From: Shigella phage SSG23
DNA: 64,000 bases
Sequence record: PQ351811
Direction: 5' to 3' (one strand)
Under the pieces are notes generated by a model. It was not told the origin of the DNA. It saw nothing but the letters and a program-made list of their open reading frames with translations, and searched no databases. The position numbers and the translations under genes are program-made. The first letter of the stretch is position 1. Every line of letters begins with the position of its first letter. Positions 5,738 to 64,000 of the stretch are shown piece after piece.

Positions 5738-7146
5738 TTAAAACTATCTTTTCACAGTTGATTTACAATGGCGCATTCTTTACGAATGTATGGCCTCACC
5801 TTAAAGCGGACTACTTCACCGAAGACGAAGAAAAACTGATTTATAAGCTGATTAAAAAGCACGTAGACGAATATTCTAATATTCCTACGCCAACTGCATT
5901 ACAGATTGCTTTAGACAAGGAGAGAGGCAATCAGACAACATATGAAGGGGCTAAAACTCTTCTCGATTCGCTGGAGAATACACCGGAAGACCTTGATTGG
6001 TTAATGAAGGAAACCGAAAAATTTATCCGCGACCGCGCTATGTATAATGCAATGTCACGGGCGCTAGAGATTCAGGCGAACGCACAACTACCAAAAGAGA
6101 AACAGAATAAGAAATTGCCAAGTGAAGGCGCTATTCCTGAGATCATGCAGGAAGCACTATCCATTACGTTTGATTCTGATGTAGGTCATGACTGGTTTAA
6201 TGACTTTGAAAAACGATTCTTGTTATATCAGACTAAAGCGAATAAGATCCCGTTTAAGCTGTCTATTCTGAATAAAATCACGAAAGGCGGGGCAGAGAAA
6301 AAGACATTGAATGTTTTACTTGCTGGTGTAAACGTTGGTAAATCGTTGGGATTGTGTTCTCTTGCTGCGGATTATATGGAATGTGGTTATAATGTTCTGT
6401 ATATCTCAATGGAGATGGCAGAGCATGTCGTAGCCAAACGTATTGACGCAAATTTGCTTGACATTACCTTAGATGAATTGGATGATGGCAATGTTTCCTT
6501 TGCTGAATATTCCGCACGCATGAAACGCGTCAAGAATAAGAAAGCTGGAGAACGTCCAATCGGCAAGCTGATGATCAAACAGTATCCGACTGGTGGCGCG
6601 AACTCCAATCACTTTGAGGCGTTAATGAATGAATTGCGACTCAAGAAACAGTTTAAACCTGATGTTGTGATTGTTGACTATCTGGGGATTTGCGCATCGT
6701 CTCGCTTGCGTGTATACTCTGAAAATAGTTACACACTAGTTAAGGCTATTGCGGAAGAACTTCGCGGATTTTTTGTTAAGTGGGATGTTGTTGGTTGGAC
6801 TGCGGCACAGACTACCCGCGCGGGTTGGGATGCTTCCGACCTTAACATGAGTGATACCGCTGAATCAGCAGGTCTTCCGGCTACAGCCGATTTTATGTTG
6901 GGTGTAATTGAGACCGAAGATCTTGCAAAAATGGGTGTTCAATTACTCAAGCAGATTAAATCTCGTTACGGTGATAAGAACTATTATTCACGGTTTAACG
7001 TTGGTGTGAAAAAAGGCAATCAGCGTTGGTATGAAGTCCCAAACCAGATCGCAGATCAGGAGAATGCACAAGTTAAACCACAAAGCGCACAGCAAGCCGA
7101 GAAACGAGAAAAACTCGACGAGCTAGCAAATAACATGACTTTCTAA
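5734..7146 (+). CDS. 41: replicative helicase gp41 (DnaB-like)
   Basis: 470 aa; Walker A LLAGVNVGKS; size and position as T4 gp41. Confidence 0.9.
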   Translation: MIKTIFSQLIYNGAFFTNVWPHLKADYFTEDEEKLIYKLIKKHVDEYSNIPTPTALQIALDKERGNQTTYEGAKTLLDSLENTPEDLDWLMKETEKFIRDRAMYNAMSRALEIQANAQLPKEKQNKKLPSEGAIPEIMQEALSITFDSDVGHDWFNDFEKRFLLYQTKANKIPFKLSILNKITKGGAEKKTLNVLLAGVNVGKSLGLCSLAADYMECGYNVLYISMEMAEHVVAKRIDANLLDITLDELDDGNVSFAEYSARMKRVKNKKAGERPIGKLMIKQYPTGGANSNHFEALMNELRLKKQFKPDVVIVDYLGICASSRLRVYSENSYTLVKAIAEELRGFFVKWDVVGWTAAQTTRAGWDASDLNMSDTAESAGLPATADFMLGVIETEDLAKMGVQLLKQIKSRYGDKNYYSRFNVGVKKGNQRWYEVPNQIADQENAQVKPQSAQQAEKREKLDELANNMTF

Positions 7147-16621: not shown

Positions 16622-16649
16622 TTGACATACAAGGGAGATTCTCTATAAT
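16622..16649 (+). promoter_or_regulatory. sigma70-like early promoter with flanking GGGAG/CTCCC repeat
   Basis: TTGACA 16622-16627, 16-bp spacer, TATAAT 16644-16649. Confidence 0.55.
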
Positions 16650-16683
16650 GGGAGTCTCCCTTTTCTTTTATGAGGATTTAATA

Positions 16684-16983
16684 ATGAGCAAAAAGAATAA
16701 CATGATGATGAGCATGGCAAAGTTCATGGAAGCAGACCTGATCAAAAATACAGTACAGCATGAACGTCAGCGAGAAGCCGCAGTGATTGCAGAACAAGGT
16801 TTTCAGGTTATCCGCAATCCACCTAAAGACACGGTTAAATCGAAATACAGAGACGATTTGAAAGACCATGAAGTACGGGAACTGGTTAATGATCTGCGTG
16901 ACATTGCTATCAAATATCATGGTTATCAGTGCTTAAGAGAACTGATTGCAGAGCGAGTAATGGATGCACTGAAAAAAGATTAA
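16684..16983 (+). CDS. hypothetical protein
   Basis: 99-aa ORF from RBS-proximal ATG; ORF-track upstream extension runs through the promoter. Confidence 0.4.
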   Translation: MSKKNNMMMSMAKFMEADLIKNTVQHERQREAAVIAEQGFQVIRNPPKDTVKSKYRDDLKDHEVRELVNDLRDIAIKYHGYQCLRELIAERVMDALKKD

Positions 16984-16990
16984 AAAGTTG

Positions 16991-17019
16991 TTGACGCTGG
17001 ATCGGGGATATAGCATAAT
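16991..17019 (+). promoter_or_regulatory. PeSL-type promoter TTGACG-17-CATAAT inside palindrome GGGGATAT...ATATCCCC
   Basis: Near-identical copy at 63508-63536. Confidence 0.55.
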
Positions 17020-24345: not shown

Positions 24346-24374
24346 TTGACACCAGAACAAGGGAGTAGTAACAT
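24346..24374 (+). promoter_or_regulatory. PeSL-type promoter TTGACA-17-TAACAT within palindrome GGGAGTA...TACTCCC
   Basis: Palindrome 24361-24380; conserved leader and RBS before ATG 24406. Confidence 0.55.
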
Positions 24375-24405
24375 ACTCCCATACCAAACAAAAGGAGAAT
24401 CAAAG

Positions 24406-24678
24406 ATGAGCAACAAAAACAGCAAAGTGTTAGCAATTGCAGATAAAGTAGGCTACTGGAAATGTTGGGATGATATGGAGAAATTAGGCGGTCGCTATCT
24501 CGATAACTTAGAGTTGCATTATTGCCAAGCGCGTAATGCAGAAGTTGCGGGAGTAGCAATCGAAGATATTCCGTCTAAAGTCTTCGGATTCTCTAAAGAT
24601 GATACCTTAGAGTATGTTTTTAAGGCTGTAATGGATCAAGCATGGGAAGACGCAGAGACACGCGCTCTTGATTGGTGA
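24406..24678 (+). CDS. hypothetical protein
   Basis: 90-aa ORF. Confidence 0.4.
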   Translation: MSNKNSKVLAIADKVGYWKCWDDMEKLGGRYLDNLELHYCQARNAEVAGVAIEDIPSKVFGFSKDDTLEYVFKAVMDQAWEDAETRALDW

Positions 24679-24853
24679 TAATATGAACTGGTATAAAATT
24701 TGGAAAAATCAGGTGGAGGCTTATCTAGGGTATAAGCCCACCGACGAAGAATTACTCGATGCAATGTACGAAGACGGACTAAATCCGAAAGTAGCCGCGC
24801 AAGAATACGCGGAATGGATGAAGGTCGAAGATAACCTAAAGGGGAAACTATGA
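24668..24853 (+). CDS. hypothetical protein
   Basis: 61-aa ORF; start uncertain (possibly 24683). Confidence 0.3.
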   Translation: MIGDNMNWYKIWKNQVEAYLGYKPTDEELLDAMYEDGLNPKVAAQEYAEWMKVEDNLKGKL

Positions 24854-25074
24854 AGAAAATGATTGCAATTGCTTTGCTGGCTAGTGCATGTACTGTAAAT
24901 GCTAATACCGCAGCGATGGTCGCGGCTGTAACTGCTGCAAATGCTTCCGTTATGGCTTCACAAGAGGCAGCACGCCAGCAAGCACAACAAGAAGCCCAGC
25001 GAAAAGCACATGAGGCGACGAAAAATTTTCACGAAAATAATAAAAAAGAAGTTGACGCCAAAGGTCGTCGGTAG
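24850..25074 (+). CDS. small secreted protein (N-terminal signal peptide)
   Basis: MKKMIAIALLASACTVNA signal-like N-terminus, Ala/Gln-rich mature part; 3' end overlaps next promoter. Confidence 0.4.
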   Translation: MKKMIAIALLASACTVNANTAAMVAAVTAANASVMASQEAARQQAQQEAQRKAHEATKNFHENNKKEVDAKGRR

Positions 25075-25080
25075 TATTAT
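25052..25080 (+). promoter_or_regulatory. PeSL-type promoter TTGACG-17-TATTAT
   Basis: Followed by ACTCCC half-palindrome and conserved leader. Confidence 0.5.
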
Positions 25081-25114
25081 ACTCCCATACCGAAACGAAC
25101 TGGAGGAAATAAAA

Positions 25115-25357
25115 ATGGTTAAAGTTAATGTTATCGAAGTTGCACTGTACGACGCTGGGATCTTCCTGAATGAAAAAGAAGCTGCCGTCCTCGACGAACT
25201 GAAAACTGTTTTTGTTCCTGTAGTAGAAGACGTAGAAGCAATCAAAATCGCTTCTCGTAAACTGTCCCATGAAGCATTTGACATGATTGATCCGGTTTTC
25301 AAAGTTATGCACGAATGCGCGGTTATGATGACCGAAGAAGAAGCGAAAAATTTCTAA
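25115..25357 (+). CDS. hypothetical protein
   Basis: 80-aa ORF from RBS-proximal ATG. Confidence 0.4.
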   Translation: MVKVNVIEVALYDAGIFLNEKEAAVLDELKTVFVPVVEDVEAIKIASRKLSHEAFDMIDPVFKVMHECAVMMTEEEAKNF

Positions 25358-25363
25358 AATTAG

Positions 25364-25392
25364 TTGACGTAAAGAAACGGGAGTAGTAAGAT
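25364..25392 (+). promoter_or_regulatory. PeSL-type promoter TTGACG-17-TAAGAT within palindrome GGGAGTAgtaagaTACTCCC
   Basis: Palindrome 25379-25398; leader ataccaaacgaaaggagaatcac. Confidence 0.55.
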
Positions 25393-25421
25393 ACTCCCAT
25401 ACCAAACGAAAGGAGAATCAC

Positions 25422-25634
25422 ATGAAATCTATCGAGCAAGTAGTAACCGAGTTTATGAGCTACGAAGGAAACCGCATCTTTGGACGTTCTCAAGTTCGCG
25501 AGATCGTAGAAGAAGTTGCGAGAGAGTTTGCGGAATCTGGTCACATTATCACGAAAGACCGTAAAGAAGAAGCAGTAAACCAGATCATGGCTATACAGAA
25601 AATGCGTATTAATTTACGCGTGGGTAAACATTAA
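25422..25634 (+). CDS. hypothetical protein
   Basis: 70-aa ORF. Confidence 0.4.
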   Translation: MKSIEQVVTEFMSYEGNRIFGRSQVREIVEEVAREFAESGHIITKDRKEEAVNQIMAIQKMRINLRVGKH

Positions 25635-25643
25635 AAATAGTTG

Positions 25644-25672
25644 TTGACAGGGGATCGGTGATCCCCTATAAT
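25644..25672 (+). promoter_or_regulatory. PeSL-type promoter TTGACA-[GGGGATCggtGATCCCC]-TATAAT
   Basis: 17-bp palindromic spacer with two GATC sites forms the whole spacer between consensus -35 and -10. Confidence 0.6.
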
Positions 25673-25703
25673 GAACTCATCAAGACAACGAAGGAGAATC
25701 AAA

Positions 25704-25859
25704 ATGAAACATACTCACAAATTAATGGTTAAATTTGAAGGTGCTAAGGGATATGAACGTTACGGTGTATTCTTCTCTGAGGATGATGCATGGGATGCTG
25801 GTTTGGCAACGTTCGCCGAACACAACAACATTGAAGACTTTACTGTAGAAGAAATTTAA
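25704..25859 (+). CDS. hypothetical protein
   Basis: 51-aa ORF from RBS-proximal ATG. Confidence 0.35.
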   Translation: MKHTHKLMVKFEGAKGYERYGVFFSEDDAWDAGLATFAEHNNIEDFTVEEI

Positions 25860-25867
25860 AAAAGTAG

Positions 25868-25896
25868 TTGACACCGGATTATGGGAGTAGTAAGAT
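25868..25896 (+). promoter_or_regulatory. PeSL-type promoter TTGACA-17-TAAGAT within palindrome GGGAGTAgtaagaTACTCCC
   Basis: Palindrome 25883-25902. Confidence 0.55.
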
Positions 25897-52427: not shown

Positions 52428-52478
52428 AAAAGTAGTTGACACTGAATAACGGGGGTAGTAATATACCCCCATCGAAAC
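52427..52478 (+). repeat. PeSL copy 1: 52-bp promoter/stem-loop cassette (TTGACA-17-TAATAT, palindrome GGGGGTA...TACCCCC)
   Basis: 52 bp identical to 52703-52754. Confidence 0.7.
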
Positions 52479-52492
52479 AAAGGAGAATCAAA

Positions 52493-52711
52493 ATGAAATT
52501 TATCTGCACCGACTCTATCAGCAAACACTTTGTAGTAGGCGAAGTATACGAATCTACTACCATTCGTCAGCGTGACCTGATGGGTCGCCTTTACAATCAG
52601 CCAGTATTCATTATTGGTGAAGAATTGTTCTACATTGAAAACCGTCCGTGGGTTGCTTTCAATAAACGAGGACGCAAGGTAGCAAAATTCGAACTTGTCA
52701 TTAAAAAGTAG
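52493..52711 (+). CDS. hypothetical protein flanked by identical PeSLs
   Basis: 72-aa ORF from RBS-proximal ATG; stop TAG inside second PeSL copy. Confidence 0.45.
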   Translation: MKFICTDSISKHFVVGEVYESTTIRQRDLMGRLYNQPVFIIGEELFYIENRPWVAFNKRGRKVAKFELVIKK

Positions 52712-52754
52712 TTGACACTGAATAACGGGGGTAGTAATATACCCCCATCGAAAC
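52703..52754 (+). repeat. PeSL copy 2: 52-bp promoter/stem-loop cassette
   Basis: 52-bp exact direct repeat of 52427-52478. Confidence 0.7.
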
Positions 52755-57221: not shown

Positions 57222-57528
57222 ACAAATTGATAATATCGTACTTCGTGAAGCACTCAAGAAAATGTTTTCGGTCGGTACTCACTCTTTGCAGTTTACTAAG
57301 AAAGATGGTACTGTCCGAGATATGATCGCCACGCGAGATCCGGCACTGATGCCATTTGAAACATACGAAAAGTGGTTAGTGCCTAATGTTGATAAACCGC
57401 GTAAAGAATCAGAAACATCTTTGCCAGTATATGAAATTGCAGTTGAAGGTTTTCGTAGCTTCGGGCTTGATAGTCTGATTCATGTAAACGGCTTAACGCC
57501 AGCGCAGATCATCGAAATTTATAAATAA
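57214..57528 (+). CDS. hypothetical protein
   Basis: 104-aa ORF overlapping cd stop. Confidence 0.4.
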   Translation: MTEQIDNIVLREALKKMFSVGTHSLQFTKKDGTVRDMIATRDPALMPFETYEKWLVPNVDKPRKESETSLPVYEIAVEGFRSFGLDSLIHVNGLTPAQIIEIYK

Positions 57529-58140: not shown

Positions 58141-58609
58141 AATTGATATCTATGCGGGTGGACCTTATCCATCTGGCGAGTTGAGTAATTTCAATAAAAG
58201 ACCATTCCGTCTATTTGGTTGCGATATTAACAGCACAGAAGGATTTTTACAGGGGCTAAGATTTAAGAACCCTCAGAGACAAAGAGAAATCTTTTTGATG
58301 CACGGTGGCAAAGCAAAAAGAACCGGAAGGACTGAAAAGATAGAGAATCACATGCTATATTTTCAGGGTCGCCCGATTCATCGAATGAGTGAGCATTATT
58401 ACAGACTGGTACATCTGGCATTTGTTACGATGGCACGGAATAACCCAGAATTTTGTAAAGCATTACTCGCTACCGGAAATAAGAAATTGCGTCATAGCAT
58501 AGGTGGAACTGATCCGTTAAAGACCATATTGACCGAATCGGAATTTTGTAGTATCCTCAATGATATTCGTGAACGTTTAACAAAACGAGGTGAAAATGTC
58601 AATTCTTAA
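58130..58609 (+). CDS. NADAR-like (YbiA/DUF1768 family) protein
   Basis: 159 aa; ELSNF, STEGFLQGLRF (cf. YbiA DFSNF...TSEHYFQAQKF), KALLATGNKKL fit NADAR pattern as recalled. Confidence 0.5.
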   Translation: MTSEIDIYAGGPYPSGELSNFNKRPFRLFGCDINSTEGFLQGLRFKNPQRQREIFLMHGGKAKRTGRTEKIENHMLYFQGRPIHRMSEHYYRLVHLAFVTMARNNPEFCKALLATGNKKLRHSIGGTDPLKTILTESEFCSILNDIRERLTKRGENVNS

Positions 58610-60092
58610 TATCATTAATCAGCTTGCAGCGACCGACAAAACATCGCTGAAAGAAAAGATCCTGAAAGAATCTGCAAGCAATGAAACGCTGAAAGAATGC
58701 TTTTATCTGGCATATTGCAAACAGGTTACGTTTGGCGTAAAGAAATACGATAAACCGTCGCGTTATTCATCTGTGTTGTCTTTATCCGGTGCATTACAGG
58801 TCTTTAAAAATAAACTTGCCACGCGTCAAGTAACTGGTAATGCCGCATTACAGCTAGTTACCGATACTCTGACTTGCTTGTCAGAAGATGATGCTAAAGT
58901 TGCAATGATGGTCCTGAATCGTGATCTGGAATGCGGTTGTTCCGCTACCACAGCAAACAAGGTATGGAAGAAGCTGATTCCTCAGCAGCCGTGCCATCTT
59001 GCATCGTCATGTTCTGATAAGACTATTGCCAATATCAAATATCCGGCGTATGCACAACTTAAAAGCGATGGCGCTCGTGGTATGGCTGATATTGACGGGG
59101 AAACATTAGCAATCTATACCCGTTCAGGTAATACCTATCAGGGGCTGGATGATTTGTTTGCTGTTTTAGAGCGTCTACGAGGCCGTGGAGTTGTTTTAGA
59201 TGGTGAGTTGGTATATATGCCTACCCTTTCGCAAACACCAGCGCAGAACTTCGTTGATAGCGTTTATGATGGTACTCTGTCATGGATATTTGAAGAAGAG
59301 GAAATGCCATTAACGCCAGTAGCGGAAGCAGTGAAAGAATCAGTTGTTGCAGATCGTCAGACCGGAAATGGTATCCTTAACAAATCACTGAAAGGAACTA
59401 TTCCGAAAGAAGAAGCCCAATGTATTGTATACACCGTCTGGGATGTTATCGACCGTGATGTGTATTACGGAAACGAGAAAGCAACGAAGCAGTATAAAGA
59501 TCGATTTGAGGAACTAAAACAGATTGTTGAAGAACTTAACGATCCTCGTGTTCAGATAATCGAAAATACTGTAGTTAACAATATCGATGAGGCTCGCGAA
59601 GTATATCATCGCTATGTAAACATGGGATTAGAAGGTATTATCCTTAAAAATTTACATGGTGTATTTGAAGATCGTCGCAGTAAAGATCAGGTTAAATTTA
59701 AAGAAGTGATTGACTTCGACGCGGAAATTGTTGATGTATATCCGCATAGTAAAGATCCTAACAAGGTAGGCGGTTTTACTGTCCGTAGTGCGTGCGGACG
59801 AATGACGACTAACACCGGATCGGGATTGACCGACACCACAACCGAAAAAGATGATGATGGTATTGAACGTGTAATTCCGTTCGATCGTCGAAATGAACTC
59901 GACCGAGAAATGTTATGGGCTGACCGTCATAACCTGATTGGAAAAGTCATTGAGATGACATGCAACGGGTATATCCGCAGCAAATCACGTAAAGAAGATG
60001 AACCGGAGTTCTCTTTATTTCTCCCGATCATCAAACGTATTCGCTACGACAAGACCACTGCAAATACAGTAAAAGAGGTATTCGATGTGTGA
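58596..60092 (+). CDS. 30: ATP-dependent DNA ligase gp30
   Basis: NRDLECG, ANKVW, YPAYAQLKSDGARG (ligase KxDG), VLDGELVY, GIANKSLKGTI, EGIILKN, KFKEV match T4 gp30. Confidence 0.9.
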   Translation: MSILNIINQLAATDKTSLKEKILKESASNETLKECFYLAYCKQVTFGVKKYDKPSRYSSVLSLSGALQVFKNKLATRQVTGNAALQLVTDTLTCLSEDDAKVAMMVLNRDLECGCSATTANKVWKKLIPQQPCHLASSCSDKTIANIKYPAYAQLKSDGARGMADIDGETLAIYTRSGNTYQGLDDLFAVLERLRGRGVVLDGELVYMPTLSQTPAQNFVDSVYDGTLSWIFEEEEMPLTPVAEAVKESVVADRQTGNGILNKSLKGTIPKEEAQCIVYTVWDVIDRDVYYGNEKATKQYKDRFEELKQIVEELNDPRVQIIENTVVNNIDEAREVYHRYVNMGLEGIILKNLHGVFEDRRSKDQVKFKEVIDFDAEIVDVYPHSKDPNKVGGFTVRSACGRMTTNTGSGLTDTTTEKDDDGIERVIPFDRRNELDREMLWADRHNLIGKVIEMTCNGYIRSKSRKEDEPEFSLFLPIIKRIRYDKTTANTVKEVFDV

Positions 60093-60561
60093 TAATGAAG
60101 GGGCGAAAGCCCCTAAACCTAAAAAATTGTCAAAGAAAGAGCAACGCCAGATCCTGAAAATGAAATACGGTGGACGTTGTGCCTATTGTGGCGAGGAACT
60201 AGGGGATCGCTGGCACGCAGACCACATCAAACCAGTATTGCGACGCTCAAAAGTAGTCTATGATGAAAGTGGACGAATTGCCCGTAATGATGATGGATCG
60301 TGGAAGTATAAGGTTGTAGGAATGCATAAACCGGAGCACGATATACTTGATAACATGAATCCGGCTTGTGTGCAATGCAATCTTTACAAAAGCTGTATGG
60401 GCTTAGAATACTGGCGTAAGTGTATACGCGAGAACTTCCAGAAGTACATTCAACGTAACATGGGATTACGTGCGGCTAAACGCTTTGGCTTACTTTCAAT
60501 CCACGATCAGCCAGTAGAATTTTATTTCGAAAAGTACGAGCGCGAGCATCAAGAAAAATAA
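60085..60561 (+). CDS. HNH endonuclease (free-standing)
   Basis: 158 aa; CAYCGEEL...HADHIKPV...NMNPACVQCNLYK classical HNH motif. Confidence 0.7.
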   Translation: MCDNEGAKAPKPKKLSKKEQRQILKMKYGGRCAYCGEELGDRWHADHIKPVLRRSKVVYDESGRIARNDDGSWKYKVVGMHKPEHDILDNMNPACVQCNLYKSCMGLEYWRKCIRENFQKYIQRNMGLRAAKRFGLLSIHDQPVEFYFEKYEREHQEK

Positions 60562-60574
60562 TTCAAAAAAGTTG

Positions 60575-60603
60575 TTGACAGGGGATCGCCGATCCCCTAT
60601 ACT
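60575..60603 (+). promoter_or_regulatory. PeSL-type promoter TTGACA-[GGGGATCgccGATCCCC]-TATACT
   Basis: Palindromic 17-bp spacer with two GATC sites. Confidence 0.6.
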
Positions 60604-60637
60604 GCACACATACCGAAACGAACTAGGAGAATCAATT

Positions 60638-60817
60638 ATGAACTTCAACGAAATCATCGCTAAAATCCGCTACAACGAAGAAACCATTGAACTGATGCAA
60701 AACAATATCACCAATGGTTATATGATTGCAGCGTCACAAGAAATCATTGATTTGACAGTAGCAGAAAATGCTCAGTTGAAACATCAACTTTCAACGGCTG
60801 GCGTGATTGTTATGTAA
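60638..60817 (+). CDS. hypothetical protein
   Basis: 59-aa ORF from RBS-proximal ATG. Confidence 0.4.
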   Translation: MNFNEIIAKIRYNEETIELMQNNITNGYMIAASQEIIDLTVAENAQLKHQLSTAGVIVM

Positions 60818-60834
60818 TAAAGAGAGGTGACTAA

Positions 60835-61167
60835 ATGGCAAAAGTTCAGGTAGGCGAGGTCTTCAAAATGGAAGACCACACCGTGGAAGAGATGAAAGGC
60901 GCGGTATTGAAAGTAACTAATTCAATGTGGCGTAGTGTGCTTTACATCAACTTTATCGACGGTGATGTGTGGTGGGCTAGTGATAACGTTAAATGGGGCG
61001 TTAAATGGGACGAAGAAGGCAATATGGCCATCAAGTTCTACAAAGGTCATACTCACTGGTTAGGAACAGAGGATGTTGTAGAAGTTCTGGCGGTTGATGT
61101 TATGCCAGGAGAGATCGAAAGTCTTAGCGGAACCGCAAAAGAAGCATTGACACGCCATTTTGTGTGA
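60835..61167 (+). CDS. hypothetical protein, member of HxHW...LAVDV paralog family
   Basis: 110 aa; ...GHTHWLGTEDVVEVLAVDV... Confidence 0.45.
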   Translation: MAKVQVGEVFKMEDHTVEEMKGAVLKVTNSMWRSVLYINFIDGDVWWASDNVKWGVKWDEEGNMAIKFYKGHTHWLGTEDVVEVLAVDVMPGEIESLSGTAKEALTRHFV

Positions 61168-61224
61168 TGTAATATAACAATCATTGGGAGGGGTAATACT
61201 CTCCCACAAATTGAGGATAATATT

Positions 61225-61416
61225 ATGTGTGGTCTTAAAATGGTTGCTGAATATAAGCAAACTGGTAATGTCATGATGTATCGTCGCAATGCTAACGAAG
61301 ACTGGAAACCTTCCAACCGAATTAAATCCATTCAGACGTTTATGAATAACATCAAAGAAAACCTTTTCGTTAAGCGTGCTGGTGTTGGACATTGGGAAGT
61401 TTACGAAGTTGTATAA
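61225..61416 (+). CDS. hypothetical protein
   Basis: 63-aa ORF, RBS GAGGA upstream. Confidence 0.4.
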   Translation: MCGLKMVAEYKQTGNVMMYRRNANEDWKPSNRIKSIQTFMNNIKENLFVKRAGVGHWEVYEVV

Positions 61417-61432
61417 TTTTGAGGAAATTGTT

Positions 61433-61726
61433 ATGGAACATACTAATTTGTTTGTAGCCGAACCTTTCGTTGAAGGCAATAAAAATCTGGCTAATACCGT
61501 TATTCTTTATGAAGATTGGATCTTTTACATCGACGAGCATTTAGATGTATTTTGTCGCACAGATAAAAGCGACCAATTTCCAATTGAAAAAAATCGAACA
61601 TCAAATCATTGGTACGGCGGGAATGACGAAACCGACCTAGCTATTGTTCTCGAATCAGGCGTAGAATCTGAACATGCCAATGAAGTGGCAGACAAATTTA
61701 TGAAATACGCATATAAAGCATTATAA
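61433..61726 (+). CDS. hypothetical protein
   Basis: 97-aa ORF from RBS-proximal ATG. Confidence 0.4.
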   Translation: MEHTNLFVAEPFVEGNKNLANTVILYEDWIFYIDEHLDVFCRTDKSDQFPIEKNRTSNHWYGGNDETDLAIVLESGVESEHANEVADKFMKYAYKAL

Positions 61727-61731
61727 AGTTG

Positions 61732-61760
61732 TTGACAGGGGATCACAGATCCCCTATAAT
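61732..61760 (+). promoter_or_regulatory. PeSL-type promoter TTGACA-[GGGGATCacaGATCCCC]-TATAAT
   Basis: Palindromic spacer 61738-61754 with two GATC sites. Confidence 0.6.
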
Positions 61761-61794
61761 GCACACATACCAACGAGATATAGGAGAATCAAAA

Positions 61795-61962
61795 ATGTTC
61801 CAGACTAAAGAAGAATGTGAAGCATACATTGTAGCAAACCACGGTGAAGACTACCTGAAATTCGATATCGTAGTAGCACAGAAGATCACCGGAATGGTTG
61901 CAAAATATCTGGGTGTTAAAGAAGGTTACTATCCGAGCAACGCACCAGAAATTAACAAATAA
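61795..61962 (+). CDS. hypothetical protein
   Basis: 55-aa ORF from RBS-proximal ATG. Confidence 0.35.
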   Translation: MFQTKEECEAYIVANHGEDYLKFDIVVAQKITGMVAKYLGVKEGYYPSNAPEINK

Positions 61963-61965
61963 TAG

Positions 61966-61994
61966 TTGACAATGATTAACGGGAGTAGTAAGAT
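61966..61994 (+). promoter_or_regulatory. PeSL-type promoter TTGACA-17-TAAGAT within palindrome GGGAGTAgtaagaTACTCCC
   Basis: Same module as 25364 and 25868. Confidence 0.55.
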
Positions 61995-62026
61995 ACTCCC
62001 ATCAAGAAAACAAACGGAGAATCAAA

Positions 62027-62206
62027 ATGAAAGCTATCGAAGTTCAGAAGTACATGGAAATCATCGTTGAAGGTAAAGCACATTTAGTGTTGACTACTCA
62101 CGTAGGATATGATAAAAATGTACATATGCTGGTAGACAATATCGGTTGGATGAAGTTTAATCCTAACGAGAATATACAAGCTCAAGAAATGACCATCCCT
62201 TTCTAA
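62027..62206 (+). CDS. hypothetical 59-aa protein
   Basis: RBS ACGGAGA then ATG; below ORF-track cutoff. Confidence 0.35.
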   Translation: MKAIEVQKYMEIIVEGKAHLVLTTHVGYDKNVHMLVDNIGWMKFNPNENIQAQEMTIPF

Positions 62207-62218
62207 GAGGAATATATT

Positions 62219-62497
62219 ATGATGCGAATTACTGCAACACTGGATAAGACACACAAAGAAAGATTTTTCGGTATGATCTTAAAAACGCCGATTTTCGATA
62301 ATTACCTTTATGTTGACTATGAAGGCCATATTAGCTATAAATGTAAAAATGATATTCGTGATTCCTTTGGTGATAAATCACAAGCTGATATTCATGACCA
62401 CTGGTGGACCTTCGACGAACCTTTACGGATTATCGCAGTTGATGTAAAAACAATAAAAGAAGCTGATAAGGTAGTTAACGATTATGAGCAAATTTAA
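62219..62497 (+). CDS. hypothetical protein, member of HxHW...(I/L)AVDV paralog family
   Basis: 92 aa; ...IHDHWWTFDEPLRIIAVDV... Confidence 0.45.
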   Translation: MMRITATLDKTHKERFFGMILKTPIFDNYLYVDYEGHISYKCKNDIRDSFGDKSQADIHDHWWTFDEPLRIIAVDVKTIKEADKVVNDYEQI

Positions 62498-62693
62498 AGA
62501 CTACAAAGCATATCAACAGATCCTGCGAGTATATGACGCGGAGTTCGCCGAAAAGATGATGGAAGATGCATCAAAATGCCCGTCCTTTTCTGGAAACAAG
62601 AATCATTATTCGACCGGGATTGTATCGTGGAAAGAAACCGCATATACTAAACAATGGATAGATGTGTTTTCAAAAACTCTTGAATGGTGTTAA
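62484..62693 (+). CDS. hypothetical protein (MSKFKDY tandem paralog 1)
   Basis: 69 aa. Confidence 0.4.
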   Translation: MSKFKDYKAYQQILRVYDAEFAEKMMEDASKCPSFSGNKNHYSTGIVSWKETAYTKQWIDVFSKTLEWC

Positions 62694-62695
62694 TT

Positions 62696-62911
62696 ATGAG
62701 CAAATTTAAAGATTATCGAGCATATAAAGCGATCTGCGATATATTCGATGAAAAGACCGCTCATGCAATGATGGAAGATGCAGAACAATATGAATCATTC
62801 GTCAATTCCAAAGATTGCGCAGTAAACGGGATTGTGTGTTGGAAAGATACAAAGTATGAAGAAAAATGGATTACCGTGTATTACGGAGAACTAGAATATG
62901 AAATTAACTAA
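62696..62911 (+). CDS. hypothetical protein (MSKFKDY tandem paralog 2)
   Basis: 71 aa. Confidence 0.4.
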   Translation: MSKFKDYRAYKAICDIFDEKTAHAMMEDAEQYESFVNSKDCAVNGIVCWKDTKYEEKWITVYYGELEYEIN

Positions 62912-63218
62912 AAAGATTTTTCCAGAATTGCGTAACTGTCTGTTACTGGTTACTGAATATAAGCCGTATACGATCTACTTGTACGTTGATGAAAATCTGA
63001 AAATCCGTTACTATGATTATACTTCTCCAGTGATGAAATCATTTGCTCACTCGATCGCAAATAACTGTATGAATCATAATCATTGGGTATCAGAAACGGA
63101 TGACGATGCGTCAGAAGTTGTAGTGGTTGCATGGAATCTATCACCAGCGGAAGCAGATCAAGCACGCATTAAGCATTATGCGAAAAACAATTGGTTTGAC
63201 CTTATAAGTGAGGACTAA
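62898..63218 (+). CDS. hypothetical protein, divergent member of HxHW paralog family
   Basis: 106 aa; ...NHNHWVSETDDDASEVVVVAWN... Confidence 0.4.
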   Translation: MKLTKKIFPELRNCLLLVTEYKPYTIYLYVDENLKIRYYDYTSPVMKSFAHSIANNCMNHNHWVSETDDDASEVVVVAWNLSPAEADQARIKHYAKNNWFDLISED

Positions 63219-63222
63219 TATT

Positions 63223-63501
63223 ATGTTCAAAGTAGGTGATAAGTTTATTCTTAGTCGTGATATTCTCCCTAATCTGAAAGGTTGTATCATCAATCCTAGT
63301 AAAAATTCATGGTTTTATCTGTTTATCGATGATGATCTAAATGTACGCGCCGAATATAAAGAAGGTCTTCGTACTGGTCTAGGCTTCTTTCACGATCATG
63401 ACCATAGCCATTGGCTAAACGGTGGATTCGAAGCAACGGTGTTAGCGGTTGATGTGACTTACACCAACATCATAGAAAAATATCAAAAAATTATTTTATA
63501 A
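63223..63501 (+). CDS. hypothetical protein, member of HxHW...LAVDV paralog family
   Basis: 92 aa; ...HDHSHWLNGGFEATVLAVDV... Confidence 0.45.
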   Translation: MFKVGDKFILSRDILPNLKGCIINPSKNSWFYLFIDDDLNVRAEYKEGLRTGLGFFHDHDHSHWLNGGFEATVLAVDVTYTNIIEKYQKIIL

Positions 63502-63507
63502 AAAGTG

Positions 63508-63536
63508 TTGACACCGGATAGGGGATATAGCATAAT
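63508..63536 (+). promoter_or_regulatory. PeSL-type promoter TTGACA-17-CATAAT inside palindrome GGGGATAT...ATATCCCC
   Basis: Near-identical to 16991-17019. Confidence 0.55.
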
Positions 63537-63582
63537 ATCCCCATCGAAACGAGATACACTTTCTAACTAGGAGAATCAAATT

Positions 63583-63870
63583 ATGGCATACATCACTATC
63601 ACTCTGAAAGTTAACAAATTCGCTCACGCTGCACACGAAACCGACAATGCAATCCGCAACAATAAGTTTGCACGTCTGGTACGCGATGCAGTAGCTAAAG
63701 AGTTCAACTTCAAATTTGCAGATGGTAAAGTTATCACTAAATGGACTCATGACGGCGAAACTAAAGTAGAACTTGCTGACAACTTCGCAAATCAGGAATA
63801 TGCGCACCGTCGCATTAATGAAATTATCAGCGATGAACTCTACTACGGCGTACAGGAAGGACTGTTTTAA
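63583..63870 (+). CDS. hypothetical protein
   Basis: 95-aa ORF. Confidence 0.4.
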   Translation: MAYITITLKVNKFAHAAHETDNAIRNNKFARLVRDAVAKEFNFKFADGKVITKWTHDGETKVELADNFANQEYAHRRINEIISDELYYGVQEGLF

Positions 63871-63874
63871 TATA

Positions 63875-63898
63875 AAGGGGGCTTTAAAGCCCCCTTTT
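63875..63898 (+). terminator. rho-independent terminator
   Basis: AAGGGGG-ctttaaag-CCCCCTT followed by T-run. Confidence 0.7.
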
Positions 63899-63923
63899 CA
63901 TCCAACTATTGAGGATAATACTA

Positions 63924-64000
63924 TGAAAGATATTACTTTTGAGTTTACCCGCGAAATTCTCCCAATGCTTCGAAAGTCTCTACTTAAGCTAGAGAACAGT
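63924..64000 (+). CDS. hypothetical protein, 5' fragment (continues beyond window)
   Basis: RBS GAGGA then ATG 63924; open to window end. Confidence 0.3.

Follow-up and report, generated by a model that had tools for sequence, protein, structure and literature searches.

A block of small genes downstream of the DNA ligase gene lies at positions 60575-63582 of a 64,000-nucleotide stretch of Shigella phage SSG23 (record PQ351811; hereafter the window), and very probably it is an early-gene block organised by four PeSLs ('promoter-early stem-loops') in an RB49-like phage of the T4 type. Bases 60000-64000 are a 100% match to Shigella phage SFHK24 (PQ351812), a Krischvirus, and share 91-96% identity with more than 50 other genomes of that genus, which is the RB49/phi1 group of T4-type phages. 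The genes here follow the order rnlA, pseT, cd, gene 31, 30.3, gene 30 and an HNH endonuclease gene, beyond which some 23 small hypothetical genes lead to a DNA methyltransferase gene and then to alt. The block itself corresponds to phi1 open reading frames (ORFs) 209 to 199, with collinearity extending from phi1 ORF212 to ORF198. It belongs to hyperplastic region 3 (HPR3), which extends from gene 30 to alt, and makes up the proximal part of it; in RB49/phi1, this region is where PeSLs were defined and tested by Arbiol et al. (2010; PMC2839356).

Four PeSL elements

The original prediction placed four PeSL-type promoters at 60575, 61732, 61966 and 63508, and a sigma-70 scan recovers all four on the + strand. 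Each has a TTGACA -35 box and a spacer of 17 nucleotides (nt), followed by TATACT at 60575 (11 of 12 consensus positions), TATAAT at 61732 (12 of 12), TAAGAT at 61966 (10 of 12) and CATAAT at 63508 (11 of 12). The GGGGATC...GATCCCC spacers described for two of them are present at 60575 and 61732, where a palindrome fills the whole spacer (GGGGATC-GCC-GATCCCC and GGGGATC-ACA-GATCCCC, respectively); we refer to these elements as class A. In class B the hairpin overlaps the -10 box, with stems GGGAGTA/TACTCCC at 61966 and GGGGATAT/ATATCCCC at 63508. The name PeSL is warranted, as every sequence-level feature of the RB49/phi1 elements is found here and the four are orthologues of the HPR3 PeSLs of phi1/RB49 (PMC2839356, PMC4122927).

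PeSL1 (60565-60637, + strand, class A) has its -35 box at 60575-60580, palindrome at 60581-60597 and -10 box at 60598-60603, with an A-rich tract upstream, a GGAG ribosome-binding site, an ATG at 60638 and a predicted transcription start near 60610. PeSL2 (61725-61794, + strand, class A), the orthologue of phi1 PeSL206/205, has the same arrangement (-35 at 61732-61737, palindrome at 61738-61754, -10 TATAAT at 61755-61760, predicted start near 61767). The two class B elements are PeSL3 (61957-62026, + strand; phi1 PeSL205/204), with its -35 box at 61966-61971, hairpin at 61981-62000, -10 box at 61989-61994 and predicted start near 62001, and PeSL4 (63499-63582, + strand; phi1 PeSL199/198), with its -35 box at 63508-63513, hairpin at 63521-63542, -10 box at 63531-63536 and predicted start near 63543. 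The predicted starts are A residues about 7 nt past each -10 box.

Over its 70-100 bp or so, each PeSL begins with an A-rich tract containing the stop codon of the upstream gene. The promoter and a G(n)...C(n) hairpin come next, and after the -10 box a conserved stretch of roughly 30 nt, the leader, is followed by GGAG and an ATG. The AT-rich tract with its stop codon reads TAATTCAAAAAAGTTG, TAAAGTTG, TAATAG and TATAAAAAGTG directly before the four -35 boxes, and the Shine-Dalgarno sequence and start codon take the form (A)GGAGAATCAA-N1-3-ATG at the 3' end of all four elements. The stems, of 7-8 bp with 4-5 G-C pairs, are of the RB49/phi1 type, and in a 51-58-nt context the hairpins fold as RNA at -13.4 to -15.1 kcal/mol (z = -2.5 to -4.3, PeSL3 having z = -4.3). 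Since the predicted start is in every case just 3' of the hairpin, the hairpin would be missing from the element's own transcript and would occur only in read-through RNA from upstream.

A possible fifth, weaker element (61147-61206, + strand) lies in the 3' end of o208, where TTGACA-17-TAATAT (10 of 12) is followed, downstream of the -10 box, by a hairpin GGGAGGGG...CTCTCCC at 61185-61206 (-15.7 kcal/mol, z = -3.4). It may be a fifth PeSL, of a rarer 'downstream' subclass; it is kept in 14 of 16 relatives, namely those that retain o207, and the annotated promoters of phage GEC-3S include none at this site.

Genes of the block

The comparison of the block drew on 16 relatives, aligned to it by BLAST and globally; with the window this makes 17 genomes. 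As originally described, the block is preceded by gene 30 and an HNH gene. Gene 30 (58596-60092, + strand), annotated as an ATP-dependent DNA ligase in SFHK24 and phi1, is the left anchor of HPR3, and no indels were found in it among the 16 relatives. The HNH endonuclease gene (60085-60561, + strand), a homologue of phi1 ORF212, matches Pfam HNH (E = 7e-6) and phrog_2118 (E = 5.7e-55), with a ratio of nonsynonymous to synonymous polymorphism (pN/pS) of 0.03. A search for solved relatives of its protein gave no match below E = 0.1. The gene is the immediate upstream neighbour of the PeSL1 hot spot, and PHROGs named 'endonuclease VII' are among the weaker, secondary matches of its protein (E = 8.5e-10 and 6e-7), a likeness that matters only if a structure-specific nuclease acts on PeSL hairpins.

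About 13 small ORFs had been counted after these two genes; 11 are complete within 60575-63582, and 13 are reached only by going to the window end, where the last is truncated. All those considered here lie on the + strand. Behind PeSL1 stand o209 (60638-60817), a 59-aa ORFan matching phrog_14803 (unknown function) with pN/pS 0.01; o208 (60835-61167, 110 aa), a member of the HxHW family with in-frame indels of 12 or 30 nt in relatives; o207 (61225-61416), a 63-aa ORFan; and o206 (61433-61726), a 97-aa ORFan matching phrog_15965 with pN/pS 0.27. The single gene o205 (61795-61962, 55 aa) forms a cassette with PeSL2. PeSL3 is followed by a tightly packed six-gene unit (62027-63501) in which starts overlap or abut the preceding stops: o204 (62027-62206), o203 (62219-62497), o202 (62484-62693), o201 (62696-62911), o200 (62898-63218) and o199 (63223-63501). 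After PeSL4 comes o198 (63583-63870, 95 aa; phrog_7474, pN/pS 0.01), and its unit is closed by a canonical intrinsic-terminator-like hairpin, AAAGGGGGC...GCCCCCTTT (about 63874-63898, + strand), the only hairpin of those discussed that is followed by a T run. The orthologous site is an annotated terminator in GEC-3S, and pairing survives sequence changes in relatives.

The pN/pS values of all 12 small ORFs lie between 0.01 and 0.32, with o209 and o198 constrained to the same degree as the ligase. Apart from the polymorphisms described below, o209 to o198 occur in essentially all 16 relatives. The 12 ORFs are thus real genes under purifying selection, kept across the genus.

Both paralogue families that had been reported in the block are real. 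The HxHW family comprises o208, o203, o200 and o199, plus o197, and has an invariant H-x-H-W motif; o202 and o201 form a pair with 47% identity. Two more paralogue pairs, o205/o191 and o198/ORF210, have their partner outside the window. In the latter case o198 and phi1 ORF210 (positions 6650-6961 of comparison stretch L003) are both full-length matches to phrog_7474 at about 1e-43, and a pairwise BLASTP of the two was not significant. Distant paralogy is probable given the shared PHROG, in which case a distant paralogue would stay behind when ORF210 is lost.

Database searches say little about what these proteins do. Pfam gave no family for 11 of the 12 small ORFs and only a sub-threshold PROCT match for o199 (17.7 bits against a cut-off of 23.6), PADLOC gave no match for the 10 small ORFs tested, and every PHROGs match of the small ORFs is of 'unknown function'. 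The HxHW family appears confined to Krischvirus-like contigs (73 matches); its AlphaFold2 model is confident and has no significant structural neighbour. By analogy with early ORFans of other T4-type phages, the ORF products are probably accessory early proteins acting on the host. An Rfam search of 60000-64000 gave no match at E <= 1. As an observation on the existing annotation, the GenBank start of SFHK24 coding sequence CDS0244 (window 63800-64000; L001 9801-10229) falls inside o198 with a 71-nt overlap. This deposited start is probably wrong, since relatives and a ribosome-binding-site motif place the start at 63923 (101 aa).

Gene content and its junctions

The block had been called 'hyperplastic', a description that suits its edge better than its interior. 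Among the 16 relatives it shows four gene-scale polymorphisms and several highly divergent alleles, the strongly divergent ones being in o208, o206, o203 and o201, and neither kind of change occurs in the 2.5 kb upstream of the block. The interior, PeSL-rich as it is, is fairly stable, because PeSL1 (60575) is the only one of the block's PeSLs that serves as an indel junction and o209 to o198 are so widely kept. True variability is found at the left edge of the block and immediately beyond the window end (ORFs 197-191).

At the left edge, an ORF210 cassette of 393-397 bp lies between two PeSLs in 12 of 16 relatives and is absent from the window genome and from ELT3, JK32, Makalu_003 and UPWr_E1. 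Window bases 60548-60622 align to both of the PeSLs that flank ORF210 in relatives, and PeSL1 is a chimera with the left flank of phi1 PeSL212/210 and the right flank of PeSL210/209. A single chimeric PeSL1 is the arrangement that ORF210 excision would be predicted to leave. In infections with RB49 and phi1, an ORF210 mini-circle of about 400 bp has been sequenced with crossover points in the PeSLs, the RB49 crossover being mapped inside the loop (PMC2839356), and the cassette size seen here fits that circle. Of 55 phage records with o209, 44 also have ORF210. Genomes lacking it fall in at least three clades of a crude left-flank tree, and this tree disagrees with a right-flank tree, which points to repeated events or recombination at the ORF210 junction. 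We also considered a recent horizontal sweep of the cassette, as suggested by its identity of at least 99% to phi1 in 41 of 44 records, and rejected it: in the same 12 genomes, ORF210 diversity is 0.011, similar to that of o209 (0.008) and not far below that of the HNH gene (0.018).

A second PeSL-bounded change lies partly outside the window. PeSL2 together with o205 (61725-61963) is duplicated about 3.3 kb downstream as a PeSL plus o191 (L001 10981-11218), with 85% nucleotide and 87% amino-acid identity and with homology running from the PeSL to the stop codon. In JK32 and UPWr_E1 o191 is absent, and a chimeric PeSL stands before o190.

Three gene-scale polymorphisms remain. Four relatives have ORF211 (349 bp) straight behind the HNH gene, which, like ORF210, is a difference in gene content associated with PeSL1. 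In three relatives a 268-bp ORF (88 aa) sits exactly between o209 and o208 at 60835 (L014 3233-3499, L015 3584-3850, L017 2838-3104), a plain gene junction with no PeSL; the encoded protein had no Pfam or PHROG match. Finally, o207 is precisely deleted in UPWr_E1 and swapped for an unrelated 53-aa ORF in FL15. The junctions of these o207 events (window 61207-61227 and 61414-61435; L017 3425-3500; L015 4150-4400) coincide with a short ribosome-binding-site motif, TTGAGGAnAAT..ATG, common to o207 and o206. Going by these junctions, the motif would be a second, shorter, non-PeSL 'linker' for gene-precise deletion or replacement. The same motif is also found before o197 (63904-63925).

Proposed working of the block

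On the reading that we favour, host RNA polymerase would fire the four PeSL promoters immediately on infection, yielding four early units: o209-o206 from PeSL1, o205 from PeSL2, o204-o199 from PeSL3 and o198 from PeSL4. The hairpin, transcribed only by read-through, would attenuate or terminate the upstream RNA or stabilise its 3' end, and would in this way insulate each transcription unit. As dispersed direct repeats, PeSLs would also allow the phage recombination machinery to cross over between copies, and such crossovers could delete, duplicate or insert PeSL-bounded gene cassettes via circular intermediates.

That promoters and hairpins act in this phage as in phi1/RB49 we infer from experiments on those phages. 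The phi1 orthologue of PeSL2, PeSL206/205, is a strong promoter that drove a lacZ fusion to about 13,000 Miller units (PMC2839356). PeSL2 and this orthologue have different loops and different -10 boxes (TATAAT in PeSL2, TATACT in phi1). They also differ at three single bases: one immediately behind the -10 box, one in the A-rich upstream tract, and an A of the run that precedes the ATG. The only stem-loop tested, that of PeSL211/210, attenuates transcription (PMC2839356), and its stem, GGGGATC/GATCCCC, is that of PeSL1 and PeSL2. Attenuation or insulation is in keeping with a predicted start 3' of the hairpin, because the hairpin is then found only in the upstream read-through RNA. We found no late promoter (TATAAATA) in the block, and RB49-type phages are without MotA and middle promoters (PMC1524935), so early-only expression is to be expected. 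The only T4-type late promoter (TATAAATA) on the + strand is at 57520-57527, about 50 nt upstream of gene 31 (head co-chaperonin).

Several points weigh against this reading, some concerning the hairpins as transcript ends and others the PeSLs as sites of rearrangement. The evidence for termination is one lacZ assay on a related hairpin (PMC2839356). None of the four stems is directly followed by a U run, the next letters being TATACTGC, TATAATGC, ATCAAGAA and ATCGAAAC; with UAUAAU or AUCAAG after the stem, the canonical rule for intrinsic terminators fails. The PeSL hairpins are GC-rich like those of rho-independent terminators, and a terminator scan reported none of the four. PeSL elements are not canonical intrinsic terminators, since the U tract is missing. 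As to rearrangement, gene content does not change at PeSL2, PeSL3 or PeSL4 in any of the 16 relatives, and no PeSL marks the junctions at 60835 and o207, which are two of the four sites of gene-scale indels, so PeSLs are neither necessary for rearrangement nor always used in it. Similarity among PeSL copies also lies largely where promoter or ribosome-binding-site function would conserve it anyway.

Alternative explanations

Hardly any change is seen among 17 genomes in the -35 box, -10 box, leader or ribosome-binding site; what varies is chiefly the loops, the non-stem part of the spacer and the paired stem positions. The loops raise the possibility, somewhat unlikely in our view, that the hairpins act mainly as DNA, by hairpin or cruciform extrusion in replication that would create template-switch or break sites and thereby recombination hot spots, with attenuation secondary. 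At the class A loops (window 60588-60590 and 61745-61747), reverse-complement pairs occur at the same orthologous sites with nearly identical flanks, as expected of an inverted palindrome centre: ACC in 18 cases and GGT in 15, ACA in two and TGT in one, all three bases differing within each pair. The GGC (six) and GCC (three) loops differ by one base and are uninformative. These counts cover the window and the orthologous sites in comparison stretches L002-L017 and L018-L036, the sample having been enlarged by seven IMG/VR stretches from two contigs and 12 stretches from metagenomes. Even near-identical genomes, MIZ6 and W115 for instance, differ in the orientation of the loop. The class B loops, which contain the -10 box, vary at one position in one genome only (JK32; PeSL3 and PeSL4 in 17 genomes). 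The mirror-image loops indicate inversion of the palindrome centre, via template switching or conversion between copies. Small inversions at (quasi)palindromes are known from template switching in E. coli and from hairpin-loop inversions in plastid non-coding DNA. As there, a short perfect inverted repeat has its loop in both orientations among close relatives with unchanged flanks; the difference is that in PeSLs the palindrome is the spacer of a strong phage promoter. Loop inversion is not mentioned in the two PeSL papers (PMC2839356, PMC4122927).

The hairpins also fold as single-stranded DNA (-5.4 to -7.2 kcal/mol, z = -3.4 to -4.3), and the crossover inside the loop of the RB49 mini-circle (PMC2839356) speaks for the same explanation. 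However, stems of 7-8 bp make cruciform extrusion from duplex DNA unlikely, and one inversion could be enough to account for the mirror alleles if conversion then carried them from one PeSL copy to another. There are signs of such traffic between copies. A stem allele GGGTGTAT..ATACACCC, found in PeSL4 of 11 of 16 relatives, is also present in the SFHK24 PeSL before o185, and the PeSL4 spacer of W115 nearly equals the spacer of that SFHK24 element (CGCGAGA versus CGCGATA). The loci compared are window 63514-63542, L001 13612-13650 (equivalent to about window position 67611) and L010 5890-5940. It would seem that PeSL cores move between copies some 4 kb from each other, with gene content unchanged. 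A bolder, rather improbable version is that PeSL hairpins are replication-extruded DNA hot spots that flip loops and seed both core exchange and cassette excision, making up an integrase-free, integron-like cassette system. A structure-specific nuclease could take part, for example the adjacent HNH protein with its weak likeness to endonuclease VII. Mirror loops, core swaps over about 4 kb and at least three independent changes in ORF210 presence or absence are consistent with a system of this kind.

We also think it unlikely that PeSLs are ordinary early promoters with transcript-end hairpins and no special role in plasticity, alike owing to selection on promoter, leader and ribosome-binding site, with rearrangements using any short homology to hand. 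In its favour, three of the four PeSLs are static, the o207 events in UPWr_E1 and FL15 are bounded by TTGAGGAnAAT..ATG instead of PeSLs, the 268-bp ORF sits at a plain gene junction, and the invariant positions are exactly those functional in promoter, leader and ribosome-binding site. It accounts poorly for the ambiguous breakpoints of ORF210 and o191, which lie inside PeSLs and leave chimeric elements behind, and for the o205/o191 duplication, which starts and ends at PeSLs. The exchange of spacer/stem cores between non-orthologous PeSLs and the mini-circles of RB49/phi1 with their PeSL crossover points (PMC2839356) tell against it as well.

That the palindromes serve a dimeric protein of the phage or the host (e.g. 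an early repressor) as operators in double-stranded DNA, or act as Dam-sensitive GATC switches, instead of as RNA hairpins, is quite improbable. An operator would suit their siting, right in the spacer or overlapping the -10 box, so that a bound repressor would stand in the way of RNA polymerase, and it would suit their conserved GGGG...CCCC ends. Early shut-off must also have some other mechanism in RB49-type phages, which have no MotA or middle promoters (PMC1524935), the region includes a gene for a DNA methyltransferase, and Arbiol et al. speculate on a stem-loop-binding protein (PMC2839356). The stems, however, vary in a manner unlike that of an operator. PeSL4 has either GGGGATAT/ATATCCCC or GGGTGTAT/ATACACCC, with a G-U intermediate in ECD7; 100% of its cells are paired, and two of its eight stem pairs are changed on both sides in compensatory fashion. 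Part of this PeSL4 'covariation' is probably whole-core transfer between PeSL copies and not stepwise compensation. Likewise, PeSL1 has stems GGGGATC/GATCCCC or GGGGAG/CTCCCC, and class B copies have GGGAGTA/TACTCCC or GGGGGTA/TACCCCC. Complementarity is kept while the stem sequence changes, which argues against a sequence-specific operator: half-sites differ (GGGGATC, GGGGAG, GGGAGTA, GGGGATAT, GGGTGTAT), loop length and orientation vary freely, and five subclasses differ in where the hairpin sits with respect to the promoter (PMC2839356). The GGGGAGG-TTAA-ACTCCCC allele, found at the same site in seven of 17 genomes, has no GATC, and on this ground Dam/GATC regulation as a required feature of the class A spacers was rejected.

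A chance or compositional artefact, promoter-like hexamers being plentiful in AT-rich phage DNA, finds some footing at a loose threshold (33 promoter-like sites in the region against 25.9 +/- 4.6 in shuffles, not significant) but is refuted by 12 strict promoter-plus-hairpin composites on the + strand, the coding strand, and none on the - strand, against 0.025 expected in 200 Markov simulations, by three matches to the exact class A pattern in the window against 0.00 in 100 shuffles, and by elements kept in more than 50 phage genomes.

The composites are also unevenly placed, in that the block makes up 4.7% of the window and holds four of the 12 (binomial P = 0.0018). They belong to dispersed repeat families (D1 with nine copies, D4 with three), all are on the + strand, and the elements of the block lie in HPR3 between gene 30 and alt, which is the repetition, dispersal and early-strand placement to be expected of PeSLs. 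The window as a whole has 62 strong sigma-70-like sites (10 or more of 12 positions matched) on the + strand and nine on the - strand. Further PeSL clusters lie at 16622-16991, at 24346-25868, which is probably the 'first block' to which the present one was the second in the original prediction, and at 52436-52712, where two copies 98% identical are 276 bp apart.

Significance for accessory-gene shuffling

PeSLs are among the few concrete mechanisms proposed for the shuffling of accessory genes in T4-type phages, and HPR3 of RB49/phi1 is the experimental model behind that proposal. The observation made in this window is correct, and the elements have been known since 2010 in close relatives (PMC2839356), so the block leaves current understanding unchanged. 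Its minor additions are the natural ORF210-less genomes, the loop inversions, the PeSL core exchange and the ribosome-binding-site linker. About one fifth of sequenced Krischvirus genomes carry the ORF210-less arrangement predicted by the mini-circle experiments, which brings support from natural populations. The PeSL model is limited by the finding that most PeSLs of the block are static across the genus and that other gene-precise indels use ribosome-binding-site homology. For annotation, the block gains a predicted transcription map for 12 unannotated early genes, with four early units and one canonical terminator, and o207 is flagged as naturally dispensable; so are ORF210, ORF211 and o191, none of which is in the window.

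Comparison with known systems

The closest counterparts are the PeSLs of RB49/phi1 (PMC2839356), with which the block shares genus and locus and to which its elements are orthologous (PeSL210/209, fused with 212/210, and PeSLs 206/205, 205/204 and 199/198). Both have a promoter of the TTGACA-N17-TATAAT type, a G(n)-loop-C(n) hairpin, an A-rich tract and a GGAG site, and the two hairpin positions seen in the block are the two commonest of the five subclasses (PMC2839356). The window differs from phi1/RB49 in having one chimeric PeSL in place of the two that flank ORF210 and in its GCC and ACA loops, and PeSL2 has a perfect TATAAT where phi1 has TATACT; there is no difference in kind.

The PeSLs/PmSLs of T4/PST and KVP40/nt-1 (Comeau et al. 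2014, PMC4122927) are similar in that a promoter and a stem-loop stand 5' of small variable genes in hyperplastic regions, and they have likewise been proposed as linkers for modular shuffling. Their promoters differ (TTTACW...TAYWAT or TTGYVH...TAWWAT), their stems are AT-richer (AGNA...TCNT or A3-4G3...C3T3-4) and the stem-loop is usually upstream of the promoter (PMC4122927). They are analogues of the block's PeSLs and not homologues.

Integron attC cassettes are also small, mostly single-gene units between imperfect palindromic, hairpin-folding repeats, excised as small circles with possible reinsertion and arrayed with genes of unknown function. Integrons require a tyrosine-recombinase integrase with attI and attC sites; general homologous recombination is presumed for PeSLs. 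Integron cassettes bring no promoter and are transcribed from a shared Pc, but every PeSL comes with a strong promoter. The block contains no integrase-like ORF and no attI site, and its ORFs have no Pfam matches other than HNH; no integrase was found in RB49/phi1 either (PMC2839356). PeSL cassettes, though functionally alike, are not integron cassettes, because the integrase is missing.

Finally, lambdoid morons (Hendrix et al. 2000, as discussed in PMC2839356) resemble PeSL cassettes as autonomous promoter-gene-terminator units with accessory functions between phage genes. Unlike PeSL cassettes, morons have no conserved flanking repeats; many of them lie on the opposite strand, and illegitimate recombination is their presumed route of entry (PMC2839356), whereas in PeSLs the regulatory element itself supplies the homology.

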